Shown: one piece after another, positions 2 through 64,000 of the stretch
Layout of the letters: each line of letters opens with the position of its first letter
Position numbering within the stretch: the stretch's first letter is position 1
Source: a phage
Strand: one strand, 5' to 3'
DNA: 64,000 nt
Sequence record: PZ386953.1
Position numbers and translations under genes: made by a program
Notes under the pieces: generated by a model
Database searches by the model: none
The model's input: only the letters and a program-made list of their open reading frames with translations
What the model was told of the DNA's origin: nothing

Positions 2-2590
2 ACTAAAAAGGGTGGTGTCAAGGTAAAACTTCGTCAGGATGCTAAAGAGTGGAATGATGCCACAGGGCAACTTCCGGATTCTGGCGATGTAGATATTCCA
101 ATATCTCCATCTGGTGTAGCTCAACCGCAAAACTTCAGATATTCCGTTCTCCAAGCTGGAGAAGTAACTCACGGTGTTTTGGCTTGGGACAACGTTGGGA
201 CATACGCTCAAAATATTGTGCAGGTAAGAAAGAACGGAGAGATTGTTTGGACAGCACAGACAGTTGAGCAGTTTGTCCGTGTTGAGGGTCTGACTAAAGG
301 ATTCTACACAGCCACTGTTGTTGCAACATCTTATAAAGGTGGTGTATCTCCGGAAGCATATTGTGAGTTCAACATTCAGGCACCTGAAGCTCCTGTTTCT
401 GTGGAGGTTAAACAGGGATACTTTGCTATTACCCTGATCCCGCACAGCAGAGACTTGGCTAGTGTAAGCACCCAGTACGACTTTTGGACATCTGGGATGA
501 CAAGATTGCCAGATACCAGTGATGCAACCGTTACTTCAAAAGCCACGCGTATGGGTGTTGGTTCAACTTGGACATCTGAAGGTCTGCAGAACGATAAGAT
601 TTATTATTGGTACATTAGAACCACAAACGCTTTTGGTAGTTCTCAGTTTGTAGAATGCGCTGCACGCTGCTATACATCCATTGAAGATCTGATGCCTCAG
701 ATAGATGCTGAATTTAAAAAGACAGAAACTTATAAAGAGTTGATGAGCACTTTAGATTCCTCTATCGAAGAGGTTGAAAATCGGGTCACAGAGCTCAATA
801 AATACATGGATGGTAGGGTAGATGAAGCATTCCAGCAACTCGGAGATAGGATAGGCGCGGTAGTTACAGAGACAACTCAGAAGTTTGAGGATGTCAATGG
901 TAACATTACAGCACTGGATAAGAAACTTGTTGCTGCACAAAATAAGTTTACTAACGACCTGAACACTGAAAGTGGTAGACTGGCATCCCTGATCGAGACA
1001 ACCAATAAAGCAACTACTGATCTTTTGAACAAAAAGACAGAGGCTTTAGATGAAAAATTGGTTGCCGCCAAGGGTGAGCTGGTAGAGCAAATAGGGGGTG
1101 TTGAGAGCGGATACCTTGCTGGAGATAAAACTCTAGATGGCAAGATCAATACTCAGAGAACAGAGCTTGATGCAAGTATCCTAAGCACCAACAAGGCAAC
1201 AGTGGATCTTTTGAACAAGACCTCTGAAACCCTGGATCAAAAGATTAGTCAGACAAATGCGACGGTATCTAAGAACTATACCACGTTAGATGGTAAGATA
1301 ACCACTGCAAAAACTGATCTCAATACTTTGATCGCTAATACCAATAAGGCCACCACAGATTTATTGAATCAGAAAACATCTGCACTGTCAGAGCAGATAA
1401 CTTCTGCCCGTGGAGAGATCTCTACCAACAAGCAGGCAATTAAGGACTTGGATGGGAAACTTACCTCCACAAAAACAGCACTTGATGCTACAATTTCTGA
1501 TACTAATAAAGCCACTGTGGATCTTATTAACGGTACCGCGTCAGCTATTCGCCAAGAACTTGCGGTTGCTAAACAGGAAATAATTGATGATGTTGGTGAT
1601 GTATCTGAGCTTAGAGCTGCAGTAGCTACAACATCTAAGGCTGTAACCGACTTAGAGGGCAAAGTAAATGCTCAATGGGGAACAAAGATACAGGTAGACT
1701 CCGCAGGGAATAAGTATGTTGCAGGTATCCAGCTGGGCATGGAGGGGTCTGGGGGACAAGTTCAATCATACTTCATGGTTAGTGCAAACAACTTTGCGGT
1801 ATACAACCCCGGAAACGGAACAGCAACCCTTGCTTTCGCAATCAAGAACAACCAAGCGTTCTTGAAAGACGCTTTTATAGAGAATGGCACAATCTCCTCT
1901 GCCAAGATTGCACAAGAAATTTCGTCAAACAACTACGATGGCAACGGGTACCATAAATACGGTTGGTATATTAACAAGAACGGGCATGCCCAATTTATGG
2001 ATGTGTGGGTGAAAGGCAACATTAACGCCAGTTCTGGTAACTTCACAGGGGCAGTTAACGCCACTAGTGGTACCTTCCGTGGAGATGTTTATGCCAATAA
2101 TGGTAGCTTTAGAGGCACCATAGATGCAACCGGAGGTACATTCCGTGGTCGTGTAGAAGCTTCTGTTATCCGTGCTAACCAGTTTGAAGGTGCAATTGTT
2201 GCACACAGGACTTACGGAGATTGTGCTCCAGTATATAACTCCCAGCAGAGGGTTTGCCGTTGGAGGTGGAGATACGTAGATAACGTTTCAGGTCAAGGTA
2301 AGAACGTAACATTCTTCTTTAAACTGAACGGTACTCGTGCCAACTCCCAACTAAATGCGTGGATAGCTGGTCATCAACTCCTTGCTGGCAAGAAGTACGG
2401 AAACGACAATGATGGCATGTGTGCAGTTGGGATAACAGGTCTAGGTGAACAGACTATAGACATTATTATTGAAATCTACACCCCGTGGTCAACGTCAAAC
2501 GTGACAGGTATTACAATATCCTGTCCTACTGTGGTTGTTAGTCGTTCTAACTCCAGCTTCCAGGGACCTTGGAACGAGTCTCACGACTAA
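2..2590 (+). CDS. tail fibre protein, 5'-partial, coiled-coil shaft
   Basis: Frame is open from the window edge (tool start 179 is an internal TTG); about 4 tandem ~60-aa repeats (TNKAT-DLLNK); G/S/T/N-rich C-terminus; hairpin terminator follows. Confidence 0.6.
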   Translation, partial: TKKGGVKVKLRQDAKEWNDATGQLPDSGDVDIPISPSGVAQPQNFRYSVLQAGEVTHGVLAWDNVGTYAQNIVQVRKNGEIVWTAQTVEQFVRVEGLTKGFYTATVVATSYKGGVSPEAYCEFNIQAPEAPVSVEVKQGYFAITLIPHSRDLASVSTQYDFWTSGMTRLPDTSDATVTSKATRMGVGSTWTSEGLQNDKIYYWYIRTTNAFGSSQFVECAARCYTSIEDLMPQIDAEFKKTETYKELMSTLDSSIEEVENRVTELNKYMDGRVDEAFQQLGDRIGAVVTETTQKFEDVNGNITALDKKLVAAQNKFTNDLNTESGRLASLIETTNKATTDLLNKKTEALDEKLVAAKGELVEQIGGVESGYLAGDKTLDGKINTQRTELDASILSTNKATVDLLNKTSETLDQKISQTNATVSKNYTTLDGKITTAKTDLNTLIANTNKATTDLLNQKTSALSEQITSARGEISTNKQAIKDLDGKLTSTKTALDATISDTNKATVDLINGTASAIRQELAVAKQEIIDDVGDVSELRAAVATTSKAVTDLEGKVNAQWGTKIQVDSAGNKYVAGIQLGMEGSGGQVQSYFMVSANNFAVYNPGNGTATLAFAIKNNQAFLKDAFIENGTISSAKIAQEISSNNYDGNGYHKYGWYINKNGHAQFMDVWVKGNINASSGNFTGAVNATSGTFRGDVYANNGSFRGTIDATGGTFRGRVEASVIRANQFEGAIVAHRTYGDCAPVYNSQQRVCRWRWRYVDNVSGQGKNVTFFFKLNGTRANSQLNAWIAGHQLLAGKKYGNDNDGMCAVGITGLGEQTIDIIIEIYTPWSTSNVTGITISCPTVVVSRSNSSFQGPWNESHD
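900..1560 (+). repeat. tandem in-frame coding repeats (~180 bp period)
   Basis: Four imperfect copies encoding TNKATxDLLNKxTxALxxK in the fibre shaft. Confidence 0.55.
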
Positions 2591-2598
2591 CCTTTAAA

Positions 2599-2626
2599 GC
2601 CCCGCTTCGGCGGGGTTTATTTTTAT
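2599..2626 (+). terminator. intrinsic terminator
   Basis: CCCCGC-TTCG-GCGGGG hairpin then TTTATTTTTAT. Confidence 0.7.
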
Positions 2627-2695
2627 GCTCAGATTGACTATTGTTACAAAATTTGGTAAAATACCTTGTAGAGATTTTCATACCGGAGGAGTGAC

Positions 2696-4186
2696 GTGGC
2701 TAAGTATGGATTGACAGAGGCTGGTTTCGTTATACCAACCCTAAATGACCTAATCGTTGAAACTAAGCAAAGCCTGATCCGTGCTTTTGGCGAAAACTTC
2801 AACGTACAGAGTAACTCCGTTGCAGATAAGCTGACCACTATCTTCAACGAGCGAGAGTATCAACTTATTCTTATGGCAGCATCTGTATACGCATCACAGA
2901 CGCTGTATGGGGCAGAAGGTATTTACCTGGACGAACTTCTTGGAAGACAAGGTATTTACCGAAGAGGCCGTTCTAAATCATCAGGTACCTGCCAGTTGAC
3001 GATCAACACAACTGTGCCGTACAATATGATTTATGATTCCAAAACTTATACGCTGGATAGTGGCAACTTTGTTCTTAGCAATGATGTGCAAGTGGCAGGG
3101 AATCTTATTGCCCACAGAATAAATGCTCCAGACCTAAGGATTGGTAAATACAACTTTCAAATTACCAACCAGACAGATGGAAGTATCAAAACAAAAAGTT
3201 TGGTTTTAACAGATAAGGCTCTGGACTCTTCTGATCTGCCAAGCTTTTACGGAGAGATTAAGCAATTCATTGTCGATAATACAACCCTGTTGAACGACGA
3301 TTTGATTCAGATCGATATGTTGACAGGAACGTTGTGGATAGGGTACAATTCGAATCTTGATCAAGTTGGACTTAATAGTAGGGTAGATTTCAGAGTATCC
3401 CCGATTGTAGGGGAAAGAACCATCACCCTGGATGTTATCGCTAACGAGGCTGGTGAGCTGTCAAGAGAGGCAGAAACCGTGACAACAATGTCACCTACTC
3501 CCAGTGGATTTATCAAGCTTACCAACCGCGAAAGATTCAACGAGGGCAGGGATGTTGAGAAAGATTCCGAGTATCGCTTAAGAGCTTCCAGCACTAAACA
3601 GTTAACATCGAAGGCTACCCGTCCTGCAATCCTTAGCGCGGTAAGCGAGGTGAAAGGTGTTGAGAAAGTGAGAGTGTTCTCCAACAACACCGATAAAACT
3701 GATGCTAAAGGTATACCTCCTTACAAGTTCCAAGTGGTTGTGTTTGGTGGTGCAACGGAGGACATTTGCCAAGCACTTTACCAAACTATAGCCTGTACGA
3801 ACAGAACTTATGGTAATATTTTCTACGATGTAACTACATCTGACGGTCAAACTGAAAGAATTTATTATTCCAAGGCAAATACCTACCGCCTGGATGTAAG
3901 AATTACCTACTCAGGTGCTGCGCTTTCCACAACCGAAAAAGATGCCATTGTAGAGGCTCTTTTGCAGGTTGTTAACGGACTGGATGTTGCAGATACGTTG
4001 TACAATATCCAATTGGTTGGTGCTGCATCTGCTGCTGTGTCGATAGGTAGATTTAATAGACTGGTAATTCAAGTTAAACCTGTGGGGGCTTCTGATGAAG
4101 CTTACACTGCAAACGATATTGTTGCAAACATGACCGAGGTGTTTGACCTCGATGAAAGTAATATAACTTTCCAACAAACTATTTAA
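2696..4186 (+). CDS. hypothetical virion/tail protein
   Basis: 496-aa ORF, GTG start 6 nt after GGAGGA, inside the structural block; no recognisable motif. Confidence 0.4.
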   Translation: MAKYGLTEAGFVIPTLNDLIVETKQSLIRAFGENFNVQSNSVADKLTTIFNEREYQLILMAASVYASQTLYGAEGIYLDELLGRQGIYRRGRSKSSGTCQLTINTTVPYNMIYDSKTYTLDSGNFVLSNDVQVAGNLIAHRINAPDLRIGKYNFQITNQTDGSIKTKSLVLTDKALDSSDLPSFYGEIKQFIVDNTTLLNDDLIQIDMLTGTLWIGYNSNLDQVGLNSRVDFRVSPIVGERTITLDVIANEAGELSREAETVTTMSPTPSGFIKLTNRERFNEGRDVEKDSEYRLRASSTKQLTSKATRPAILSAVSEVKGVEKVRVFSNNTDKTDAKGIPPYKFQVVVFGGATEDICQALYQTIACTNRTYGNIFYDVTTSDGQTERIYYSKANTYRLDVRITYSGAALSTTEKDAIVEALLQVVNGLDVADTLYNIQLVGAASAAVSIGRFNRLVIQVKPVGASDEAYTANDIVANMTEVFDLDESNITFQQTI

Positions 4187-4884: not shown

Positions 4885-6956
4885 TGGCAACAGCTGTTTT
4901 TAAACCTTACCGTGATTACTCTACAATGGCTGCACGGTTTCATTACCGCACAGTTCAGGATACTGCCGTTCCTGGTAGGGATTATGATCATGTTGAGGGC
5001 GATATAACTATCCCAGTTGGGGCAACCAGTATTGAAATCCCAGTGGAAATTGTTGACAAATTACCCAACAGGTTACCAAGAAGCTTCTTTATGGAGTTTT
5101 CATCAAAATCTCAAGGGGTGATGATTGGGACACAAAGGGCGAAATGTACAATAGTTTCAGATGAGAATCTTGACAGAATATCTTGGGATACTGTCGAGGA
5201 GAGAATGTTTCACCCAAGATATTGGGTTACAACCACTCAGCAGACTGAAAGTACCTGTATTGTTGCAGATGACAACTGTTGTATTAACCGTTTAGTGTCA
5301 AGAACATATGGAGGTATGGCTGGGTGCATTTGGGAAACAGTTGACAAGTATGACCATTTCGGTATTGGGTTTGATGATCACTATGAGATGAGAAACACCA
5401 AGCTTTGGTTCAGAATGTCAATAACCAATGCCAGCAACTTCTCCACTCCTGAAAAGATGATTATGACTGTAGACCTTGTTGATGGTACAATCATCTATGT
5501 TCCTTTAGCTCAATATGCTGTCAGCATCTCAGAGGATAAGAATGTTGCAGAGATTCATATTGATTTCGAGGACTGCGTCGGGATGGATCAGAACAACAAC
5601 ATGATGGGTGTTGATCCTCGACAGGTGAGAAGAATTTTAATACCGCTCATGCCTAAAGACTGGGTAAGTAATAGCACAGACCCGAGAACGGAAAATGTAG
5701 AGTGTGAGTTGCGCCTAGATCTGCTTCAGCCAGACACGGGCTGGAAAATGATGCAACTTAACAATATTCAGGTTAAAGAGCACGACGTTGGGATCTGCAC
5801 CGCATATGACGATATGTGGAACGTATCTCCTTTAAGGGTGTTGAACAATATCAAGCGTCTGGGCTATACCGGAACCATAAACCATTATGTTGGTATGAGT
5901 CATTATTATGACTACACATGGTCAGGAACCCAATGGTCTATAAACAGAACAGGAGCGCTAAACGCTGCAGCTTATAAATGGCATGATGATTTTATGTACA
6001 ATGCCAAACGACATAACTTCGACGTTATGCAATCTGTAAGTTTTGAGCTTTTCAGCGATGCCTGCCCGTTGGAATGGACCCAAAGAGACTGGAACGATAA
6101 CTACGCTAAAACAGGGTATACACCTTGTAGCTACCTCCTGTCTCCAACCATTGAAGAGGGTATGAATTTCCTTACTGCAGTATTTAAGAATTTTGCATCA
6201 GCCGCTATGAGAAACAACCTGCCAGTGATTATGCAGGTTGGTGAACCGTGGTGGTGGTACAATACCGATACTCGTAGACCTTGTATTTATGATTACCCTA
6301 CAAAACAGGCGTTTTATGATGAGACAGGCGAGTATGCCTTAGATATTGGGACTATTGACGATCCTAAAACTGGAGGTGTTTACGACAAGTATGTAGCATT
6401 TTGTCGTGGTAAGCTTGGCGCTCGTATTGCGGCTATTTCAAAGGCAATAAAGGCACACGCTGCATCAGCTCAGATGACAGCTCTGCTGTTTTTCCCAACC
6501 ATTATGGAAACCGAGCTTACGCAAAAGCTTAACCTTGCTGACCAATATAAAAAAGAAGCAGGCGCTCTTGATTTCTTCTGCACTGAGTGCTACGATTGGG
6601 TGATGCAGGGAGGTATTGAAAAGGCAAAAGAGTCTGTAAACATACCTATCGTTAAGTTAGGTTGGCAACCGTCTGAAATACAATACCTTGCAGGGTTCGT
6701 TCCTAGTAAAGAGCTTGCTCCGGTATATGGATACGACCCAACTAGGAATTACCAAGAATTTTTATGGAGATGTATTTGCGGAAACATGGCAACTATAGAG
6801 TATAGATACCCTGAGGTAAAACAGTATGTGTGGGCATACCCGCAAGTAATGTCTGACAGCATCACTGTTACCGCTAGAGATTCTACCGTGCTTCATATGG
6901 GGCAGGTTGCTCTGAAAGGGTATGTAGAAGATGTTGTCCCGCCAGACTTCTCATAA
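4884..6956 (+). CDS. hypothetical structural protein
   Basis: 690-aa ORF; TAATG stop-start overlap with upstream gene; AGGAGGG RBS. Confidence 0.4.
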   Translation: MATAVFKPYRDYSTMAARFHYRTVQDTAVPGRDYDHVEGDITIPVGATSIEIPVEIVDKLPNRLPRSFFMEFSSKSQGVMIGTQRAKCTIVSDENLDRISWDTVEERMFHPRYWVTTTQQTESTCIVADDNCCINRLVSRTYGGMAGCIWETVDKYDHFGIGFDDHYEMRNTKLWFRMSITNASNFSTPEKMIMTVDLVDGTIIYVPLAQYAVSISEDKNVAEIHIDFEDCVGMDQNNNMMGVDPRQVRRILIPLMPKDWVSNSTDPRTENVECELRLDLLQPDTGWKMMQLNNIQVKEHDVGICTAYDDMWNVSPLRVLNNIKRLGYTGTINHYVGMSHYYDYTWSGTQWSINRTGALNAAAYKWHDDFMYNAKRHNFDVMQSVSFELFSDACPLEWTQRDWNDNYAKTGYTPCSYLLSPTIEEGMNFLTAVFKNFASAAMRNNLPVIMQVGEPWWWYNTDTRRPCIYDYPTKQAFYDETGEYALDIGTIDDPKTGGVYDKYVAFCRGKLGARIAAISKAIKAHAASAQMTALLFFPTIMETELTQKLNLADQYKKEAGALDFFCTECYDWVMQGGIEKAKESVNIPIVKLGWQPSEIQYLAGFVPSKELAPVYGYDPTRNYQEFLWRCICGNMATIEYRYPEVKQYVWAYPQVMSDSITVTARDSTVLHMGQVALKGYVEDVVPPDFS

Positions 6957-6968
6957 TCAGGAGATAAA

Positions 6969-8009
6969 ATGTCAAAACCTAGTTTTCCATTAGAGATTTG
7001 GGCAGAGGAGGATCAGGTTCTGCCTAACACCCACAGACAGAACAGGCTACGCCCGATTGATGATTTGTGGAGAAAAGGTTGGGATCTTGGTCAAAAGCCC
7101 TCATGTGAAGAACTTAACTATATTTTCAATATGCTCGGAACTTGGGCAAAATATATTGCTGACGAGCAGATCCCCGCTCAAGAAGGCCGTTATCTGGTAC
7201 GCGATAATAACTTGAGTGATCTTTTGAACATTCCTGTTGCCCGTAGAAACCTTGGGATTATTACTAAGGAAGAGGCAGACGCCAGATATGTAAAAGTTAC
7301 AGGTGATACAATGACAGGCCCACTGGGTTTGCAACGTATCAACTTTAAAGCTGCCGAGACAGATAAGGCTTGGATAGAGACAACTATTGGCCCAGATAAG
7401 ACAACTCTCGACTTTGGGTTAAGTGATAATACCGGGTCGTTTGATGATGGTGGTACATCTACAGTAGATGCGTTCCGTTGGAGATTCCAGCCAACTCAGC
7501 CGGATATTAATCCAGAGTTCACTTTGATGTACCTTAACGCGATCACGGCTAACCGTGCGCTGTTGAAAGTGGTAGGCAATGTTGAAGTTGTCGATAACAT
7601 GAGGTGCAATAACCTTACTATCAGCAATACAGCAACATTCACCAACTGTAATGTGGCTAGTCAGTTGACGGCTGGGTCAGTATATGTTAATGGTGGTGCA
7701 AGTTGTGACAGCATGGTTGTAAGAAGCCAGCACTGTGTTGTCGGTAACAGAAATGTGGTGCGCTCTGTGAATGGGGTGACGGCTAACGGTAACGGTGATG
7801 TAACAATCACTATCCCGCAGACAGGTGTGCAAGACATCAGAATCGGTGCAAGACTTGTTGACGGCGTTTCTGAATCTCCAATTCGCAACGGCTACGTTGT
7901 CACAGGCTGGCATTTCGGTGACAAAAAAGAGATGCGTGGTTCAACCTACTGGGCAGGACCTTTACAAAAACTTGTAAATGGTCAATGGATCACTGTTAAT
8001 TATGCATAG
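6969..8009 (+). CDS. tail fibre / receptor-binding protein, paralog A
   Basis: 346 aa; N-terminus, central FRWRFQP motif and C-terminal LVNGQWIT shared with 9024..10067. Confidence 0.5.
   Translation: MSKPSFPLEIWAEEDQVLPNTHRQNRLRPIDDLWRKGWDLGQKPSCEELNYIFNMLGTWAKYIADEQIPAQEGRYLVRDNNLSDLLNIPVARRNLGIITKEEADARYVKVTGDTMTGPLGLQRINFKAAETDKAWIETTIGPDKTTLDFGLSDNTGSFDDGGTSTVDAFRWRFQPTQPDINPEFTLMYLNAITANRALLKVVGNVEVVDNMRCNNLTISNTATFTNCNVASQLTAGSVYVNGGASCDSMVVRSQHCVVGNRNVVRSVNGVTANGNGDVTITIPQTGVQDIRIGARLVDGVSESPIRNGYVVTGWHFGDKKEMRGSTYWAGPLQKLVNGQWITVNYA
7965..7994 (+). repeat. 30-bp direct repeat, copy 1 (3' end of fibre gene A)
   Basis: CAAAAACTTGTAAATGGTCAATGGATCACT, identical at 10023..10052. Confidence 0.8.
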
Positions 8010-37882: not shown

Positions 37883-39950
37883 ATTTATGGCATCTGCATA
37901 CAACCGTTTCGGTGAGCCAAACCCGAAAGCAACTAAGTATAAAAGTGGGGGAAGTGTGAAACGAGACTATCGTGATGAAAAAGAAGTTGAAACTGTAGAG
38001 ACTGTTTTAGAAAATACTAAAATTGTCCCTGTCCCACAACAAAATATCGGTCTGATGGCTGCACAATATTTTGGTGTGCGATCAGCATTGTCCCAAGAAG
38101 ACGGTGTGACAGTCACTGCAACATATTTCCCATATTACGACCGCTACGGAAATCTGTCTGGTTTCAAAAAGCGTGACTGGACTATTCCTAAAGAGCAAAG
38201 GGGCCATTTCTCCGTTGTTGGCATCGTAAAGGCCAACTCCCAGATGTTTGGTCAAAAGCTGTGTGCATCTTCCAACAACCGTAAGCAGATTAACGTTTGT
38301 GAGGGAGAAGGTGATGTTATTGCAGCATGGCAGGCTGCATATCAGATACAAGTAAAAGGGATTCTCACCAACGCTAAAGCCCCGGCAAAGGTGAAGCAGT
38401 GGGCTAAAGAGGTCCAGGACGGGATCGACGCAGTTATCAACGGTGGTGATCTGGCAGGAAAACCCTGCCTGCCTTTTGTTGGAATTAACTGTGGATGTGC
38501 AAACGCAGTAGATACTTTTGCAAACAATGAGAAGTTTATCCGTAGCTATGGAACAGTTGTGCTGGCAATGGATAACGATGCAGCTAACGAGGTAGAGAAG
38601 CAAAAACACGTCATTAAAGGTGTTGAGGCCACGCACAATATCGCAGCATTTTTGATGGCTGATAACGTTTACCACGTAGAATACCCTGGTGAAGTAAATG
38701 ACCCTGACGGTGTAAAAGATATCCGAGACATGCTGAAGGCTAAAAAGCTGGAAGATATTGTCAACATGTTCCGGCACCCTGTTAAATATGTGCCTGATGC
38801 TGTGTCGGATTTAGAAGACTTCTCTATCGAGTCTTTGCGGAAAAAGACTTCCAACGGGGTAGATATCAGTGCAGAGTTCCCAAAACTGCAAAAAATGCTA
38901 AAAGGCTTGCACAAAGGGACACTTGTAATGCTTACAGGTCCATCAGGCGGCGGTAAAACAACCGTGGCTAAAAAACTGGAACACTGTATTGCAAGATACC
39001 TAATGGACCCGACATGCCCGAAGGCCGATGACTATGAAGAGGATGATCGTCTATGCATGATTCATCTTGAGGAGGACCCAGAGGAAGCAATTAACTCCTT
39101 GTATGCAAACCAGTTAGGGTTTGATGTTAAAGAGTTTGTTGAAGATCCTAGCCAGTTTTTAACTGATCAAGAACACGCAGAGATTCACCAATCATGGGCA
39201 AAAGCTGGAAAAATCAAAGTGTTCAAACATTTCGGGTCTATTCCAGTGGACGAGTTGATTACCAAGCTTAAGCAAATGGTTTGCCTGTACCATTGTCGTT
39301 ATATTGTGCTGGATCACCTGTCCATGGTAATTTCAGGGCTTAATGTTAAGGATGAGCGAAAAGAACTGGACATGGCTATGACCCAACTGGCTGCGTTTTG
39401 TAAGCAGTTTAACGTGTTTATCTTGGTGATCGCTCACCTCAAACGTACAGAGATTGTGCCCCCTAAGGACAAGGATGGTAACCCATTACCTTTCTGGTAT
39501 CCTGTGCGAAAAGAGAATTTGCGAGGATCGGCTGGGCTTGAACAGTTGAGTTGGGTAGTCATAGGTGTCGAGGCCGAAGAAATGGTGGATCGTTCTCGTG
39601 GACGTGTCCGTCTGGTAGGTCTTAAAAACCGTCCAGCAAAAACTTTAGGTATTGCTGACACTTTAGTTATGGATCCGCATACAGGTAAGTTCCATGATGC
39701 CAGTAATTGGTACTGGGACAAAGAAATGCAGATGTTTACAGACGGAGAAGGTGGGGAGGTTGTTTGGAGACCTCAGGCTATGTTTGAGGATCAGGAGCAT
39801 GCAGTTGTAGAAACACCTATGGGCAAGGTTGTGGCTGATAAGGTTGTAACACCCACTGTCAAGCCTATTGACACGCAGGAAGACCTCCAATACGATGATC
39901 CATCCTCTGATCCGGTCCCTGGTTTTGAGGATGATGAAACACCTTTTTAA
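37872..39950 (+). CDS. primase-helicase (TOPRIM + DnaB-like)
   Basis: TOPRIM-like EGEGD and DNDAANE; Walker A GPSGGGKTT; precedes the polymerase. Confidence 0.7.
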   Translation: MGSKFMASAYNRFGEPNPKATKYKSGGSVKRDYRDEKEVETVETVLENTKIVPVPQQNIGLMAAQYFGVRSALSQEDGVTVTATYFPYYDRYGNLSGFKKRDWTIPKEQRGHFSVVGIVKANSQMFGQKLCASSNNRKQINVCEGEGDVIAAWQAAYQIQVKGILTNAKAPAKVKQWAKEVQDGIDAVINGGDLAGKPCLPFVGINCGCANAVDTFANNEKFIRSYGTVVLAMDNDAANEVEKQKHVIKGVEATHNIAAFLMADNVYHVEYPGEVNDPDGVKDIRDMLKAKKLEDIVNMFRHPVKYVPDAVSDLEDFSIESLRKKTSNGVDISAEFPKLQKMLKGLHKGTLVMLTGPSGGGKTTVAKKLEHCIARYLMDPTCPKADDYEEDDRLCMIHLEEDPEEAINSLYANQLGFDVKEFVEDPSQFLTDQEHAEIHQSWAKAGKIKVFKHFGSIPVDELITKLKQMVCLYHCRYIVLDHLSMVISGLNVKDERKELDMAMTQLAAFCKQFNVFILVIAHLKRTEIVPPKDKDGNPLPFWYPVRKENLRGSAGLEQLSWVVIGVEAEEMVDRSRGRVRLVGLKNRPAKTLGIADTLVMDPHTGKFHDASNWYWDKEMQMFTDGEGGEVVWRPQAMFEDQEHAVVETPMGKVVADKVVTPTVKPIDTQEDLQYDDPSSDPVPGFEDDETPF

Positions 39951-50729: not shown

Positions 50730-50732
50730 TAC

Positions 50733-50761
50733 TTGAAAATTCCTGGCATATCAAGTATAAG
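50733..50761 (+). promoter_or_regulatory. sigma70-like promoter inside a palindrome
   Basis: TTGAAA-17 bp-TATAAG; embedded in TACTTGA...TCAAGTA inverted repeat. Confidence 0.4.
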
Positions 50762-51036
50762 GGGGATTTCTAAAATGGATTTCCTCCTTTTGATATTTCA
50801 CCGGGCTGGATATTTTAAAATTCTTAGAAAATCAGAAAATGGATCGAAAACTAAAATGTATTTTTCAGAGTAGGCGCGACAAGCTGAATAACTCATCCTA
50901 TCGTTTGCACCATATTCCAGGCCACCATTATAGATTTTCCCACACATGCTCACATCCTTCTACCAGAACTTTCCCACTCGCCCTTGGCCTTTTATGGCAA
51001 TAATCCAGCCACTATCTTGAAGTTGCGGTACAGCTT

Positions 51037-51128
51037 TCCAAGTACTCGATCTGTTTTTCGTTTCAAAGATTGAATTTTCTGAAAATTTTTCTCGATAAAT
51101 TTCCAAGTACTCGATCTGTTTTTCGTTT
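51037..51128 (+). repeat. iteron-like direct repeats
   Basis: TTCCAAGTACTCGATCTGTTTTTCGTTT at 51037-51064 and 51101-51128; partial third copy TCGATTTTTCGTTTT at 51189. Confidence 0.7.
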
Positions 51129-51332
51129 TCTGAATCGGATTTTCTGGAAATCGTTCCAGCTCTCTACCTGAAATTTTTGGGGACGAAATCGATTTTTCGT
51201 TTTCAGAAATGGATTTTTAAAATTTCTATATGGGAATATTTTATGGGATACTGTTTTATAGGAAATTGTTACGGAGGGTAATTAGCATGCTAATTAAATT
51301 TATTAAATGCGAGGAGTTCTCATTTAGAATTT

Positions 51333-51350
51333 TGAATGATAATCATTCTC
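51333..51350 (+). promoter_or_regulatory. Fur-box-like sequence
   Basis: TGAATGATAATCATTCTC matches about 15 of 19 positions of GATAATGATAATCATTATC; weaker copy at 51464-51480. Confidence 0.3.
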
Positions 51351-60990: not shown

Positions 60991-61098
60991 TGTCATATAA
61001 GAACTATAAAAACCGTTGACATCTGCCAGGTGGTGGGGTAACATTTATCTTGAAGGGGCAAAAGTGCCCACACAACAACCAGAAGAGAGGAAAACATT

Positions 61099-61371
61099 AT
61101 GTCAAGCTGGATTAATCAAGAAGTCGAATCACGTTTTAATGCTATTTGGGATCTCATCGAAAAAGAGGACGGAACATCAAGCCCTTATCTCAATAATCTT
61201 GAATTCCATTTCGTGGAAGCGATGAACGCAGAACATGATCACGAAGGTGGTGCGGATGAGTTCGCTAAAGGGTATGGCTTCAACAATGCCAACGAAATGA
61301 TCGAGGCGGTTGTACTCCAGGCTGAGGAAGATTATCAATTAAAAACGCTTGAATTCTGCCGCCGTAAGTAA
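61099..61371 (+). CDS. acidic early protein
   Basis: 90 aa, D/E-rich; promoter 61005-61034 and leader hairpin. Confidence 0.45.
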   Translation: MSSWINQEVESRFNAIWDLIEKEDGTSSPYLNNLEFHFVEAMNAEHDHEGGADEFAKGYGFNNANEMIEAVVLQAEEDYQLKTLEFCRRK

Positions 61372-61433
61372 TAAGATAATGACACGGGCCAAAAGGCCCA
61401 CTAAACAAAAACCACATAAAGAGGAAAAACATC

Positions 61434-61697
61434 ATGAAACGTCTTGACCAGCTCAAACTAGTTCAATATATGGCTTATCGTGTTCTGGAAGTCCAGAAAG
61501 GTAGCAAAAAAGAGGTTTGCGAGAAAGCTTATAAGATCTTTACCCGCAAAAAAGATGACTGGATGCTACGCCAGACCAAAAAGGCTGACATCTTGGGGTA
61601 CCTGGAAGAAGAGATCCGACTTGAAGAACAAGAAGAGATCCGCCGTAGTGAGGCAGATTATCAGGCAGCTTGGGAAAACTGGATGAGCAACAAATAA
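61434..61697 (+). CDS. hypothetical early protein
   Basis: 87 aa; AAAGAGGAAAAACATCATG leader. Confidence 0.45.
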   Translation: MKRLDQLKLVQYMAYRVLEVQKGSKKEVCEKAYKIFTRKKDDWMLRQTKKADILGYLEEEIRLEEQEEIRRSEADYQAAWENWMSNK

Positions 61698-61763
61698 TAC
61701 AACAAGTTACATGGTCAGGGGCAATAAAGCCCCTTGATCACATAAAAATTATGCTATCCTTGG

Positions 61764-61792
61764 TTGACAGGGATCGGCAGTTTTGCTATATT
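61764..61792 (+). promoter_or_regulatory. sigma70-like early promoter
   Basis: TTGACA-17 bp-TATATT. Confidence 0.5.
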
Positions 61793-61842
61793 CTTTTTTG
61801 AAGGGAAGTTGTAAGAAAATTAACTGAGAGGTAAAAAACACC

Positions 61843-62262
61843 ATGAACATTAAATCTGATAATCCGGCATATAGCTTTGATAACGCTTTTTGTCACGGTC
61901 CGGCGGCGAAAGGATTCGAAATCGATGGTAAACTAATTATTGTCAATGTTGACGGGGAAGAGGTTGCAGTATATCCGGTGGCGGACGTTAAAAGCCGTCT
62001 ACAATGCCGCATGGATGTTACCGCCTATCAGCTTGATCCGGTCCGCGTAGTTGCCCTGGTCCTGGAGGAAGAGATCAAAGCCATGCATCATAGCAACAAG
62101 TTTATCGGTGACGCGCAAGATAATATGAAGGTATGCCGCCATAAAGTTAACGAAGTTCTTAAAGAATACGGCTTCAAAGATCTGATGATCAAGCGTGATG
62201 AAAAATTCCGCTATCGTAATGACCTGGCAAATCGAATCTATCAAATATACGAATCATTATAA
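61843..62262 (+). CDS. hypothetical early protein
   Basis: 139 aa; promoter 61764-61792; terminator follows. Confidence 0.5.
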   Translation: MNIKSDNPAYSFDNAFCHGPAAKGFEIDGKLIIVNVDGEEVAVYPVADVKSRLQCRMDVTAYQLDPVRVVALVLEEEIKAMHHSNKFIGDAQDNMKVCRHKVNEVLKEYGFKDLMIKRDEKFRYRNDLANRIYQIYESL

Positions 62263-62280
62263 TTTCTTAACTGAACTATC

Positions 62281-62310
62281 AGGGGCTTTAAAAGGCCCCT
62301 TTCTTTTTGT
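62281..62310 (+). terminator. intrinsic terminator
   Basis: AGGGGC...GCCCCT hairpin then TTCTTTTTG, ends the early array. Confidence 0.65.
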
Positions 62311-62879
62311 CTGTATTTCTCCTACCACAAACGGCCCCACCTGGCAAGTGGAATAATTGACTAGCCATCAATCCCACACACTGTACAAATATACATGTAA
62401 AATAGCTATTGCATAATCTTTCATTGTGTGGTAGCAGGGCCATTTTTACACGTTTTTCCTTCCAAAATTGCACGTAATGCCGCTATTGCACAAAATTTAA
62501 CCTGATGCATATCTTCAGTGTCTTGTCAACAACTAAAAATCTTTATAAGTCATACACTTACACACTCACAAAAGCGTGTTCTACGTGAAAAATCGAGTAT
62601 AACTATAGCCGCCAGATCTCAGAATTTACGTACGTTCACCATTCTATAGTCTGCTAAGTATTTATTCCAACCATAGAATAATGGAATAGTCAATACCTGC
62701 ATAAAATAATTATTCGTGTAAACTGCATAACATAAATCAGCTTAGGTGTCAACATTTTTCGTAAACAGCCTGAAATTATCACGGTGAGTTATCATAAACA
62801 GAGAAATCTTTAGTCGTCTAATGTTTACTGTACATTACTATACTTACTGGAATCATTAGATGACTAAGAGAAAGATAAG

Positions 62880-63360
62880 AAATAATTAACAATACAATTA
62901 TTTTATCTGTAACAATAAGGCAACTATGCAAACGAATGGCATGGCGCGACGGAGTCGCGACATAATATAAAAGCAGTAACCATCACCCCCGTGATAGTTT
63001 GTCTGCAAACTATTAATCAGATCATAGTTGCCTTGTATTTAGTTAATCATGACATAACAAGCAAGGCAACTATAGATCTGCTAATAGTTGCCCTGCTTTT
63101 ATATTATGTCATATATTATTAACCTGTTAATTGTCAGCTTATTGGCTGTTAGCTTGTCAATTGTTAACTTGTTAATTGTTATCATGCAAACGAATGTCAT
63201 GGCTTATCATCTTTGTGTAAACAGTCAATCATGTAAATGATAAGTATGTGAACAGTTATCCATGTAAACTATTAGACATGTAAACAATCAGGTGTGCAAA
63301 AGTGTCATAGTATGTCACTATTGTGTCTAAAGTGTCACCAGTATGTCAGACAAGTTTTTC
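62880..63360. repeat. repeat-dense AT-rich non-coding region
   Basis: AAGGCAACTAT in alternating orientation x4 (62918, 63026, 63063, 63085); GCAAACGAATG(G/T)CATGGC x2; several (T/C)GTAAAC motifs; TTAATTGT repeats. Confidence 0.6.
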
Positions 63361-64000
63361 TCCTCTTTGTCAAGTGCTGCATGAAAAATTTACAAACTGG
63401 TATGGTAGCATTTTTGCGGCCCTGTTTACATTCAGCGATGTATGTATAAACCTTGCTGTGTGGGCGTTTAGACGTCTAGACGGTTGGAAGTCTGCAGGTC
63501 AATATCTAATCTATTGGCTGCTAACCATATCCCACACAAATAGTAATAAATATAATTGTTATATGCGTAAACAGTAACTCATGTTATCAATCCCTGTATG
63601 TATCGCCAGTGGTGCGCATAATGGGTATTATGTTAAATTGCCCGTAATGATAACTATTCTCACAATGATAGGTATTCTCATTCACCCCCACAAGATAGGT
63701 TGCAAATGTTGTGCCACTGTGTGAACGGCCTAGCCTATTAATTTGCCTCACTGCCTTGATATTTGAGAATTGTTATAAGAATGAGAAGTATTCCCATTTC
63801 GTCCGCTTGGCAGCACTCCAGTCGCTACCGGCTCCTGACAGGGCAGCACTCCTGTCGGTCAGGTCAAAATCGTGGTATAACTGGACCTGTTCAGATATTT
63901 CTGGCTGACTCTTCAGGCCTGTGTGGGAAAAGCCGACCCCTCCGGCGGCGGGGAGGGGGTCAATTAAAAAATTTACGGGGTATATGAAGCGCTCTTCAGG

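Follow-up and report, generated by a model that had tools for sequence, protein, structure and literature searches.

The gene-free zone between two convergent transcription units of a Vequintavirus probably contains the genome-end junction, in which a 459-bp terminal repeat is accompanied by a branched palindrome and oriented repeat arrays

The phage represented by the 64-kb window (the whole stretch of DNA that was analysed) is a Vequintavirus, an rV5-like myovirus of E. coli, and the region studied here is placed between two convergent transcription units, the counterparts of rV5 genes 163 and 164. The gene-free zone comprises 2.5-2.6 kb and runs ca. 0.8 kb past the end of the window, which thus stops in the middle of it; the preliminary description had taken the region for the terminus of the given sequence, a view that has to be abandoned. 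The region is matched over its whole length, at 85-95% identity, by 120 phage records, all of them from Vequintavirus; a sensitive blastn search returned the same 120 records and no further genus, and a scan of IMG/VR with a 34-mer gave two contigs and nothing else. In rV5 the locus was drawn as a "non-coding" box without ORFs (Figure 2 in PMC3606486).

The non-coding and AT-rich character that had been ascribed to the region was upheld by several analyses. The longest ORF encodes 84 aa, and 3-base substitution periodicity is absent throughout positions 62300-64000 among 16 related genomes (p 0.19-0.94), whereas it is strong in two upstream genes used as controls (p 2e-5 and 4e-10); a hidden gene was rejected on these grounds. 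A tRNA search of the region found none, and Rfam gave no match at E <= 1 in positions 61000-64000 of the window or in the extended locus. The G+C content is 0.376-0.400, as against ca. 0.42-0.47 across most of the window, whose G+C minimum falls in the 62900-63350 zone and whose cumulative GC skew has its maximum at ca. 62000. Sigma-70-like promoters are not enriched in the region (12 found, 8.1 +/- 2.7 expected), and no IHF consensus site was found in it; a putative promoter lies ca. 0.7 kb past the end of the window. The features that could be delimited are collected in Table 1.

Table 1. Features of the gene-free zone and its borders, in window coordinates.
Feature	Position	Strand	Basis or remark
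Intrinsic terminator of the last + strand gene	62281..62300	+	Terminator scan; AGGGGCTTTAAAAGGCCCCT followed by a T-run
Non-coding spacer	62301..62904		Single GTAAACAG/CATAAACAG/CTGTTTAC-type sites and one TCCCACACA
20-bp direct repeat ATGCAAACGAATGKCATGGC, left copy	62926..62945	+	One end point of the FV3 deletion
Small G+C hairpin GCGCGAC-GGA-GTCGCG	62944..62961		Adjoins the palindrome
Branched palindrome, 152 nt	62959..63110		Inverted-repeat search, DNA/RNA folds, conservation
TTAATTGT / TGTTAACTTGTCAAT short tandem array	63114..63183	+	Tandem Repeats Finder; hypervariable
20-bp direct repeat, right copy	63184..63203	+	Conserved island in a variable zone, identity 0.80
(C/T)(A/G)TGTAAAC-type array	63210..63295	+	Spacing ca. 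15-16 bp, copy number variable
(G/A)TGTCA array	63296..63348	+	Copies every 9-11 bp, roughly one helical turn apart
Direct terminal repeat (DTR), 459 bp, by homology	63349..63807		GACAAGTTTTTC… to …CGTCCGC(T/C); single copy here
Hypervariable right flank	63808..63880	+	Opens with conserved TGGCAGC; GGTCAGGTCAA after GGCAGCACTCC(A/T)GTCG
Conserved non-coding block (TTCAGATATTTCTGGCTGACTCTTCAGG…)	63881..63939		Identity 0.96; - strand TCCCACACA inside
G+C hairpin followed by GGCTTTTCC on the - strand	63940..63962	-	Stem sequence variable among relatives

The terminator of the last + strand gene is kept in relatives with compensating changes in its stem, and its counterpart is annotated in Gotham, EdH4, Alma and Murica. 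The spacer that follows it, with 27-36% of columns variable, no 3-base periodicity and a pairwise identity of 0.85-0.96, seems to evolve at roughly the neutral rate. At the other border, the G+C hairpin that had been noticed beforehand is indeed present and is a likely stop for transcription that enters from the right; an equivalent - strand terminator was found in a terminator scan of naswa. The sequence TCCCACACA is present at 50938, 62372, 63530 and 63920(-), four copies where 0.68 are expected; its occurrence in both non-coding regions had been described correctly for the first three, and the fourth had been overlooked.

The branched palindrome is closed by a perfect outer stem of 18 bp (GACATAATATAAAAGCAG / CTGCTTTTATATTATGTC, 62959-62976 with 63093-63110), which was missing from the preliminary description, and it encloses an inner long hairpin bearing four (A/G)GGCAACTAT arms as well as a small hairpin, ACCATCAC-CCCC-GTGATAGT. 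Its DNA fold has an energy of -48.4 kcal/mol (z = -10.1), and the RNA folds have z = -9.3 and -8.0. Since each strand ends in a T-run, both strands look terminator-like, and the annotations of Alma and Murica mark the palindrome as a terminator. Copies of AAGGCAACTAT at 62917(+), 63024(-) and 63063(+), together with AGGGCAACTAT at 63084(-), had been read as four operator-like sites. The copies are where they had been placed and are beyond chance (with up to one mismatch, the 64-kb window holds 7 matches against 0.96 expected, and none of 100 shuffles held as many), but they are paired arms of one large palindrome, and operators were rejected as an explanation for this reason. The small G+C hairpin adjoining the palindrome, likewise seen beforehand, was recovered at its place and is unchanged in 15 genomes, except for a single-base insertion in Alma.

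The palindrome, located 239 bp to the left of the terminal repeat, has the lowest proportion of variable columns among the segments tested (8%); it is found in 118 of the 120 records, with at least 99% identity in 53 of them. An insertion is tolerated only in its apical loop, exactly where rV5 and phita32 carry one of 33 bp. No compensatory substitutions were seen in the palindrome, the few variable sites being unpaired or pair-breaking and the variation too scarce. In FV3 (two records of one genome) a 258-bp deletion between the 20-bp direct repeats has removed positions 62946-63185, including the whole palindrome; if the record is correct, the palindrome is therefore not essential. SYGMH1, of the same species as FV3, carries the palindrome. 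A miniature transposon with 18-bp terminal inverted repeats was also considered and rejected, since the arms are not bordered by a target duplication and do not adjoin the 20-bp direct repeats.

Several short repeats of the left flank had been pointed out in advance, and counting substantiated them. The (G/T)CATGGC-type repeat said to occur twice is GCAAACGAATGKCATGGC, at 62928 and 63186 (0.02 expected); the short tandem repeats are those of a TTGTTAA/TGTTAACTTGTCAAT array at 63147-63181; and the recurrence of (T/C)GTAAAC is reflected in RTGTAAAC, with 12 occurrences in the window against 5.2 expected, 5 of the 12 lying within the 1.7 kb of the region. Among the k-mers of the region, GTAAACA and CATGTAAA show the strongest enrichment with respect to the remainder of the window (p ca. 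1e-6 to 1e-7). In 14 genomes, from one to eight copies of GT(A/G)AAC lie between the palindrome and the terminal repeat, always on the + strand and never on the - strand. The TTAATTGT / TGTTAACTTGTCAAT array is swapped out, shorter or longer in relatives, with a pairwise identity of 0.12-0.29, and bov11CS3 is almost devoid of arrays. The TGTCA array (63300-63348), which had escaped the preliminary description, runs up to the terminal repeat, its last copy ending precisely at the putative cut site (…TGTCA|GACAAG). Among 16 genomes GTCA has a mean of 3.25 per 60 nt, compared with 0.2 expected, and both the TGTCA motif and the copy abutting the cut are kept in 16 of the 16 despite the turnover of the sequence; the last 5 bp of the left flank before the repeat are conserved.

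The position of the terminal repeat is provided by sister phages. For Gotham and EdH4, two laboratories independently inferred direct terminal repeats of 458/459 bp by experiment, the starts being fixed and the coverage doubled (PMC7471380, PMC6563267). Each of the two records holds two 459-bp copies that are 100% identical. Position 1 of the Gotham record corresponds to window position 63807 and its last base to 63349, and EdH4 maps likewise. The repeat of the window aligns end to end with the termini of both records, its first 32 bases being identical and its last 32 showing two differences; the last base is T in the window and C in the other 15 aligned genomes. In HdK5 the palindrome is found at record coordinates 657-819, identical to those in EdH4, which indicates that both records start at the same point. 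The revised records of the bov phages also start at the repeat edge; they were withdrawn as independent evidence of the ends, since permuted termini are given in the corresponding paper (PMC8407724) and the revision came afterwards.

Both edges of the repeat could be placed in 14 genomes, and in 13 of these (the window and 12 of 13 others) its length is exactly 459 bp; it is free of indels, with a pairwise identity of 0.92-0.97. Conservation rises 5 bp before 63349 and drops 7-9 bp after 63807. The flanks, by contrast, are ridden with indels, measuring 164 to 336 bp on the palindrome side and 49-99 bp on the right side in relatives. The hypervariable right flank, of 49-99 bp and with an identity of 0.18-0.62, contains two copies of GGCAGCACTCC(A/T)GTCG in this phage (63809 and 63842, not listed previously) and one in the others. 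A long non-coding RNA to the right of the repeat was rejected, its fold being no better than that of shuffled sequences (z = +1.47).

We consider it very probable, by homology, that the region is a genome-end or packaging junction with its terminal repeat at window positions 63349-63807, a degree of confidence that applies to what the region is and where the repeat lies, and not to the roles proposed below for its parts. The ends are transferred to this phage from relatives at ca. 90-95% identity. In the orientation of the window, 63807 would be the end of one genome and 63349 the start of the next, and virion DNA would carry the repeat at both ends; the single copy in the given sequence would be as expected in a replicating concatemer or in a collapsed assembly. 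A genome end or packaging region had been among the suggestions made from the window sequence, and this one proved right, since the physical ends of Gotham and EdH4 map inside the region; the repeats then stressed, however, fall outside the terminal repeat. The repeat itself has already been published for sister phages, so that the region is a known genome-end/packaging region; the fine anatomy around the repeat is, to our knowledge, undescribed to date.

The region is best explained as the concatemer junction of a Vequintavirus that packages exact-length DNA with short direct terminal repeats. By analogy with T7-type phages, genomes would be joined head to tail via the repeat after replication, terminase would recognise sites adjoining the repeat and cut at …TGTCA|GACAAG and …CGTCCGCY|TGGCAGC, and the repeat would be copied so that each daughter end receives one. 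The TGTCA array abutting the left cut, perhaps together with the GTAAAC array, could quite possibly be a binding platform for the small subunit of terminase, a proposal that we make tentatively. For the palindrome two roles were considered, which might be alternative or additional to each other. It may well serve as a two-way transcription stop, a role to which we give somewhat less than even weight. It is more doubtful that the palindrome acts like the T7 inverted repeat, in which case an extruded hairpin would prime synthesis through the repeat and so duplicate it. We further propose that convergent transcription is kept off the cut sites by terminators to the left and right of them, namely that at 62281-62300, the tails of the palindrome, and the - strand one at 63940-63962. 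That the palindrome and the oriented TGTCA and GTAAAC arrays make up a T7-like end-duplication machine, in a large myovirus without an RNA polymerase of its own, seems rather unlikely; in such a machine, the arrays would load terminase at TGTCA|GACAAG and the palindrome hairpin would prime the copying of the 459-bp repeat.

Other explanations have to be weighed against this one. The 62900-63350 segment could be a replication origin, with GTAAAC and GGCAACTAT as iterons and the palindrome and A+T-rich arrays as the unwinding element, which would be compatible with a genome end. Short repeats of several families are far more frequent there than chance would allow, the G+C content is the lowest in the window, the cumulative GC skew peaks at ca. 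62000, and the palindrome is strongly conserved; in addition, the rV5 authors, who searched for an origin by skew, saw the skew change where the units converge here, but they ascribe such changes to the direction of transcription changing (PMC3606486). The arrays, however, are the least conserved part, differing in copy number and sequence and being almost missing in bov11CS3, and therefore fit poorly with a site for a sequence-specific initiator; the GGCAACTAT copies are wholly explained as stem arms, FV3 lacks the palindrome, neither an adjacent initiator gene nor an IHF consensus site in the region was found, and it would be uncommon for an origin to lie 240 bp from the end of a chromosome. 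An origin and a regulatory region had both been suggested from the window sequence; none of the tests spoke for an origin, which we regard as quite improbable. Another possibility is that the conserved block is a transcription feature only (a gene for a small structured RNA, or two terminators placed back to back) that would stop the convergent early units and have no part in the formation of DNA ends, the other repeats being the result of neutral slippage. A hairpin followed by CTGCTTTTATATTATG on each palindrome strand, the very stable RNA folds of both strands, the terminator marked by the annotators of Alma and Murica, the viability of FV3 without the palindrome, and the expectation of the rV5 authors that bidirectional terminators would be found between genes 163 and 164 (PMC3606486) are in line with it. 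Against it, a strong terminator is already present 660 bp upstream, at 62281-62300; the identity of 99-100% over 152 nt in half of the 118 records exceeds the usual constraint on a terminator, and the stems at 62281-62300 and 63940-63962 vary, unlike the palindrome; Rfam gave no match, and no conserved promoter was found ahead of the block, the sole good -35 being in an insertion specific to the window. Such a reading would also leave unexplained the oriented arrays abutting the cut and the layout shared with T7 and KPP-1, and we consider it improbable.

Headful packaging from a pac site in the region would yield DNA that is terminally redundant and circularly permuted; the 459-bp repeat seen in some records would then be an artefact of assembly or of preferred first cuts. 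Many records of the genus are indeed opened at arbitrary points. PhageTerm is not known to detect fixed ends in libraries made with transposase. Four bovine Vequintaviruses were called "circular permutated" by the program (PMC8407724), and a headful/PAC call was given for BpE1AUH, which was, however, assembled from a phage cocktail (PMC13211470). To this are opposed the fixed starts and doubled coverage of the 458/459-bp repeat reported from two laboratories (PMC6563267, PMC7471380) and a third report, of a 514-bp T7-type repeat in the same subfamily (PMC9862379). Moreover, both repeat edges lie within a few bases of the conservation edges, and the length of 459 bp is fixed across diverged genomes; the headful mechanism would give neither, and is accordingly disfavoured. 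Judged indirectly, from those edges and that length, the ends would not be permuted and the second cut would be fixed, and we hold headful packaging to be highly improbable.

If the region is a concatemer junction, the ends at 63349 and 63807 would give the correct orientation of this genome and of those Vequintavirus records that have been opened arbitrarily. The region is prone to assemble as a false circle, and the junction would have to be kept intact when these therapeutic-candidate phages are rebuilt or engineered. About 120 natural variants are available, with the length of the repeat fixed at 459 bp and the flanks turning over, and FV3 represents one natural deletion of the palindrome that can be used as a test case. 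Should the palindrome and the arrays indeed work as an end-duplication machine, a three-part layout present in T7, Vequintavirus and Mydovirus without sequence similarity would represent a general way to short direct terminal repeats.

The closest known systems are Gotham (MT682716), EdH4 (MK327930) and HdK5 (MK373780), which are orthologous at this locus and share the repeat edges, the 459-bp length, the flanks and the position between convergent units. The window differs from Gotham and EdH4 in having one copy of the repeat instead of two and in the copy numbers of the arrays; the papers on these two phages give the length of the repeat only, and the palindrome and arrays are not described in them (PMC6563267, PMC7471380). 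In rV5 (NC_011041, ca. 104,014-106,617) the same locus is 85-92% identical, and differs from that of the window by 33 bp inserted into the palindrome loop and by having 8 GTAAAC copies; no function was assigned to the box, and the termini were not located (PMC3606486).

The concatemer junction of T7 has the same order of elements, namely an inverted repeat, an array of short repeats, the terminal repeat and a further array, its named counterparts being the SRR/SRL short-repeat arrays and the pac sites. Both phages have exact-length genomes, short repeats and transcription stop signals adjoining the repeat; that the ends of this phage are fixed, as in T7, comes from homology. In T7 the inverted repeat, which we verified as a sequence feature only, is centred at 39588, ca. 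190 bp to the left of the right repeat, and a ACCTAAAG array lies between them; here the inverted repeat at 62959-63110 is 239 bp away, and arrays are found on both sides of the terminal repeat (GTAAAC and TGTCA on the left, GGCAGCACTCC / GGTCA on the right). The differences are also clear: there is no sequence similarity between the two loci, the T7 repeat is of 160 bp instead of 459 bp, its inverted repeat is of ca. 40 nt and not a branched one of 152 nt, and the carrier of the present locus is a 137-kb myovirus. T7 processing also uses the phage's own RNA polymerase, with a promoter and a pause site (phiOR, CJ) within the packaging signal; neither a phage RNA polymerase nor a counterpart of phiOR/CJ was identified here, where the promoter scan covered sigma-70-like sites. 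The work on the T7 hairpin intermediate is reportedly that of Chung, Nardone and Hinkle (1990, J Mol Biol 216:939). A hairpin-ended intermediate of T7 is mentioned at second hand in a passage of PMC4281155. rV5 encodes replication proteins of the T7 type, with a gp4-like primase-helicase and a family A polymerase, and no phage RNA polymerase was reported for it (PMC3606486). Finally, the Klebsiella phage KPP-1 (Vequintavirinae, Mydovirus) has a 514-bp repeat called T7-type by PhageTerm (PMC9862379). This repeat, at 116,316-116,829, lies in a convergent gene-poor zone, as here, with a 206-bp branched palindrome (21-bp perfect arms, z = -10.5) ca. 310 bp from one of its edges and a tandem repeat of 27-bp period abutting the other. 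No DNA or flanking-protein similarity to our locus was detectable and the gene order around the KPP-1 locus is rearranged, so that the likeness is one of layout, holding without a matched orientation of the ends.

The segment 62263-64000 matches 120 phage records at 85-95% identity, practically all from Vequintavirus (rV5-like myoviruses), and lies at the right edge of the 64-kb window, which breaks off midway through a gene-free zone. In annotated relatives the + strand genes stop just left of the region and the - strand genes stop 0.8 kb past the window end, so that the gene-free zone spans 2.5-2.6 kb between two convergent transcription units. In the rV5 paper this locus was drawn as a grey "non-coding" box, and bidirectional terminators were expected there (PMC3606486). 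The G+C content descends to 0.38-0.40, and the non-coding character put forward in the preliminary description was confirmed: the longest ORF has 84 aa, Rfam and tRNA searches of the region gave no matches, and no part of 62300-64000 has a 3-base substitution periodicity in an alignment of 16 genomes (p 0.19-0.94), in which the two genes directly upstream, used as a control, have a strong one (p 2e-5 and 4e-10). The last gene before the region (61843-62262, + strand, 139 aa) is accessory; ca. 44% of the 16 aligned genomes lack it, Gotham and EdH4 among them, and a 'Rel homology domain' was noted in it by the Murica annotators. Eighteen GenBank records (MG065635-MG065690) named 'Campylobacter phage', with C. 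jejuni as host, are 88-96% identical to 62263-64000 and look like mislabelled or contaminating coliphages.

Korf et al. described 458-bp terminal redundancies in the Vequintaviruses EdH4 (MK327930) and HdK5 (MK373780) (PMC6563267), and Dias et al. described 459-bp terminal repeats in Gotham (MT682716), with an identical start sequence in all virions (PMC7471380). The records of Gotham and EdH4 were compared at both ends, and each has two 100% identical 459-bp copies, which map to a single window segment, record position 1 corresponding to 63807 and the last record base to 63349; the direct terminal repeat (DTR) was therefore placed there. The palindrome (see the table) has equal coordinates in the HdK5 and EdH4 records, implying the same record start. 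Since these record ends fall inside the region, the genome-end or packaging option of the preliminary description is upheld, and it is very likely, judging from sequence comparison, that genome ends are made here, with the DTR at this position. The only reports against fixed ends are the bov phage paper (PMC8407724) and that of one cocktail-derived genome (PMC13211470). The former gives permuted termini and 135,960-bp 'circular permutated' genomes (PMC8407724). The four bov phage records begin at the same repeat-edge base: in version 2, MT884008-MT884011 have a length of 135,883-135,884 bp, and their first base is exactly that of the terminal-repeat edge. The records were thus revised after publication, and given this and the published permuted termini they were not counted as independent support.

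Features of the genome-end junction, in window coordinates
Feature	Position	Length	Characteristics
Terminator	62281-62300		Strong; terminator of the last gene
20-bp direct repeat, left copy	62926-62945	20 bp	ATGCAAACGAATGKCATGGC
Branched palindrome	62959-63110	152 nt	Perfect 18-bp inverted repeat as outer stem
Hypervariable zone	63114-63348		Starts with a TTAATTGT-type tandem array
20-bp direct repeat, right copy	63184-63203	20 bp	ATGCAAACGAATGKCATGGC
DTR	63349-63807	459 bp	From GACAAGTTTTTC… to …CGTCCGC(T/C); Gotham and EdH4 record ends
G+C hairpin	63940-63962		Preceded by a conserved block; T-run after the hairpin on the - strand

The conservation profile was taken from the 16-genome alignment. 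Conservation rises 5 bp before 63349 and falls 7-9 bp after 63807; inside the DTR pairwise identity is 0.92-0.97 with zero indels, and of the 14 genomes in which both edges could be located, 13 have a DTR of exactly 459 bp. Among genomes, the segment between palindrome and DTR ranges from 164 to 336 bp, and that to the right of the DTR from 49 to 99 bp. The repeat edges set by other laboratories from read data coincide with the edges of selective constraint. Within the DTR, 63646-63680 holds 1.9 copies of an 18-bp tandem repeat (AATGATAACTATTCTCAC), and at 63780 there is a third copy that has diverged; the repeat carries a repeat_region annotation in naswa, Alma and others. In phage I29 (ON286975), a ca. 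620-bp tandem duplication (positions 2062-3070 of the compared locus; second copy 86% identical) spans the right 217 bp of the DTR plus flank (window 63591-64000), and is either a real genome-end rearrangement or an assembly artefact.

During ca. 600 bp after the terminator, 27-36% of the columns are variable, roughly the rate of third codon positions. In the hypervariable zone the 20-bp repeat recurs as a conserved island; after it comes a GTAAAC-type array of 1-8 copies, on the + strand in every case, and the DTR is directly abutted by an array of (G/A)TGTCA, spaced at one copy per 9-11 bp. The TGTCA motif recurs in 16 of 16 genomes although the array sequence differs (mean of 3.25 GTCA per 60 nt, 0.2 expected), and in all 16 the last copy stops exactly at the cut (TGTCA, then GACAAG). 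The right flank of the DTR is variable, opens with a conserved TGGCAGC and contains GGCAGCACTCC(A/T)GTCG once or twice; the hairpin beyond looks like a terminator for transcription from the right. The stretch 0-0.8 kb past the window right end (6700-7500 of the naswa locus) is non-coding, and its identity among 15 genomes (0.90-0.99) is above that of neighbouring genes. It rendered no Rfam match, and the fold of its putative 712-nt transcript does not surpass those of shuffled sequences (z = +1.47). On the - strand, naswa 7370-7343 is a near-consensus sigma-70 promoter, which has an extended -10 and is directed toward the DTR.

Every short repeat named in the preliminary description was found where it had been placed, and above chance. 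The (A/G)GGCAACTAT motif has 4 copies in alternating orientation (7 matches in the window, 0.96 expected), the 18-mer GCAAACGAATGKCATGGC has 2 (0.02 expected), 5 of the 12 window copies of RTGTAAAC fall within the region's 1.7 kb, and TCCCACACA has 4 copies (0.68 expected), one more than initially seen. The GGCAACTAT copies had been taken as possible operators, which was not borne out: all four make up the inner hairpin of the palindrome, as stem arms. The top k-mers of the region versus the rest of the window are GTAAACA, CATGTAAA, GGCAACTA, AATTGTTA and CCCACACA. The latter has 4 copies (62373, 63457(-), 63531, 63920(-); 0.18 expected), two of them within the terminal repeat and invariant in 7 genomes, and further CCACACA-like sites lie past the window end. 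The sole TCCCACACA copy outside the junction region is in a second gene-free stretch, 50730-51336, which also has 2 copies of TTTCCAAGTACTCGATCTGTTTTTCGTTT ca. 60 bp apart and more 'GATTTTC/GAAAAT' repeats.

The palindrome is the most conserved piece (8% variable columns), being found in 118 of the 120 records, with at least 99% identity in 53, and its DNA fold has -48 kcal/mol (z = -10.1). In rV5 and phita32 a 33-bp insertion lies exactly within its apical loop; no compensatory changes supporting its pairing were found in the compared genomes. On both strands it finishes in a hairpin followed by a T-run, and it was labelled a terminator by two annotation teams. FV3 (JQ031132 / NC_019517) is the only genome without it among the 120 records, lacking window 62946-63185 in a deletion that runs from one copy of the 20-bp repeat to the other. 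Long palindromes are often lost during cloning or assembly, and either the palindrome is dispensable in the laboratory or that of FV3 was lost in such a step.

Headful packaging appears highly improbable, as it conflicts with a fixed, indel-free DTR; since the read-defined edges match those of constraint, headful packaging or an assembly artefact is hard to reconcile with our results. That the region is an origin of replication is quite unlikely: the candidate iterons are its least conserved part, the GGCAACTAT copies belong to a stem, no initiator gene is adjacent, no test run here favours an origin, and the rV5 authors explain the skew change at this place by the direction of transcription (PMC3606486). 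It can also be the case that the palindrome block acts mainly as a two-way transcription stop. A purely transcriptional role of the region would account for the palindrome tails, but it leaves unexplained the extreme conservation of the palindrome, the oriented arrays at the cut and the parallel with T7 and the Klebsiella phage KPP-1, so that we consider it unlikely.

If the production of genome ends follows that of T7-type phages, replicated genomes would be joined through the DTR, terminase would bind beside it and cut at both edges, and the DTR would be copied, each product keeping one. Since the TGTCA array lies on one helix face, touches the cut and is kept despite sequence turnover, it would make a candidate site at which the small terminase subunit is loaded. 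The same layout, without sequence similarity, is present in KPP-1, which belongs to another genus of the subfamily and whose locus may have either orientation relative to the present one. The published 514-bp repeat of KPP-1 was classed as T7 type by PhageTerm and is located in a gene-poor zone between convergent units (PMC9862379); ca. 310 bp from one repeat edge there is a 206-bp palindrome whose 21-bp arms are perfect (z = -10.5), and a tandem repeat with a 27-bp period adjoins the other edge. The proposed mechanism is weakened by this ambiguity of orientation, by FV3, by the lack of compensatory changes and by the possible role of the palindrome mainly in stopping transcription.

The element is already known, since publications on sister phages with 90-95% identity presented the gene-free box in 2013 and the 458/459-bp repeat in 2019 and 2020; it is an ordinary genome-end region, rightly flagged in the preliminary description. 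To our knowledge, the exact mapping of its parts, the palindrome, the arrays abutting the cut and the T7-like layout are undescribed in the literature. In T7, whose sequence was checked, an inverted repeat centred at 39588 is the precise counterpart of our palindrome; it is found ca. 190 bp to the left of the terminal repeat at the right end, and an array of ACCTAAAG repeats separates the two. Chung, Nardone and Hinkle (J Mol Biol 1990, 216:939) reportedly found a hairpin end at the site of this inverted repeat, and are said to have proposed that the hairpin primes the duplication of the terminal repeat. The T7 hairpin is also mentioned in a secondary source (PMC4281155), and the replication proteins of rV5 are of T7 type (PMC3606486).
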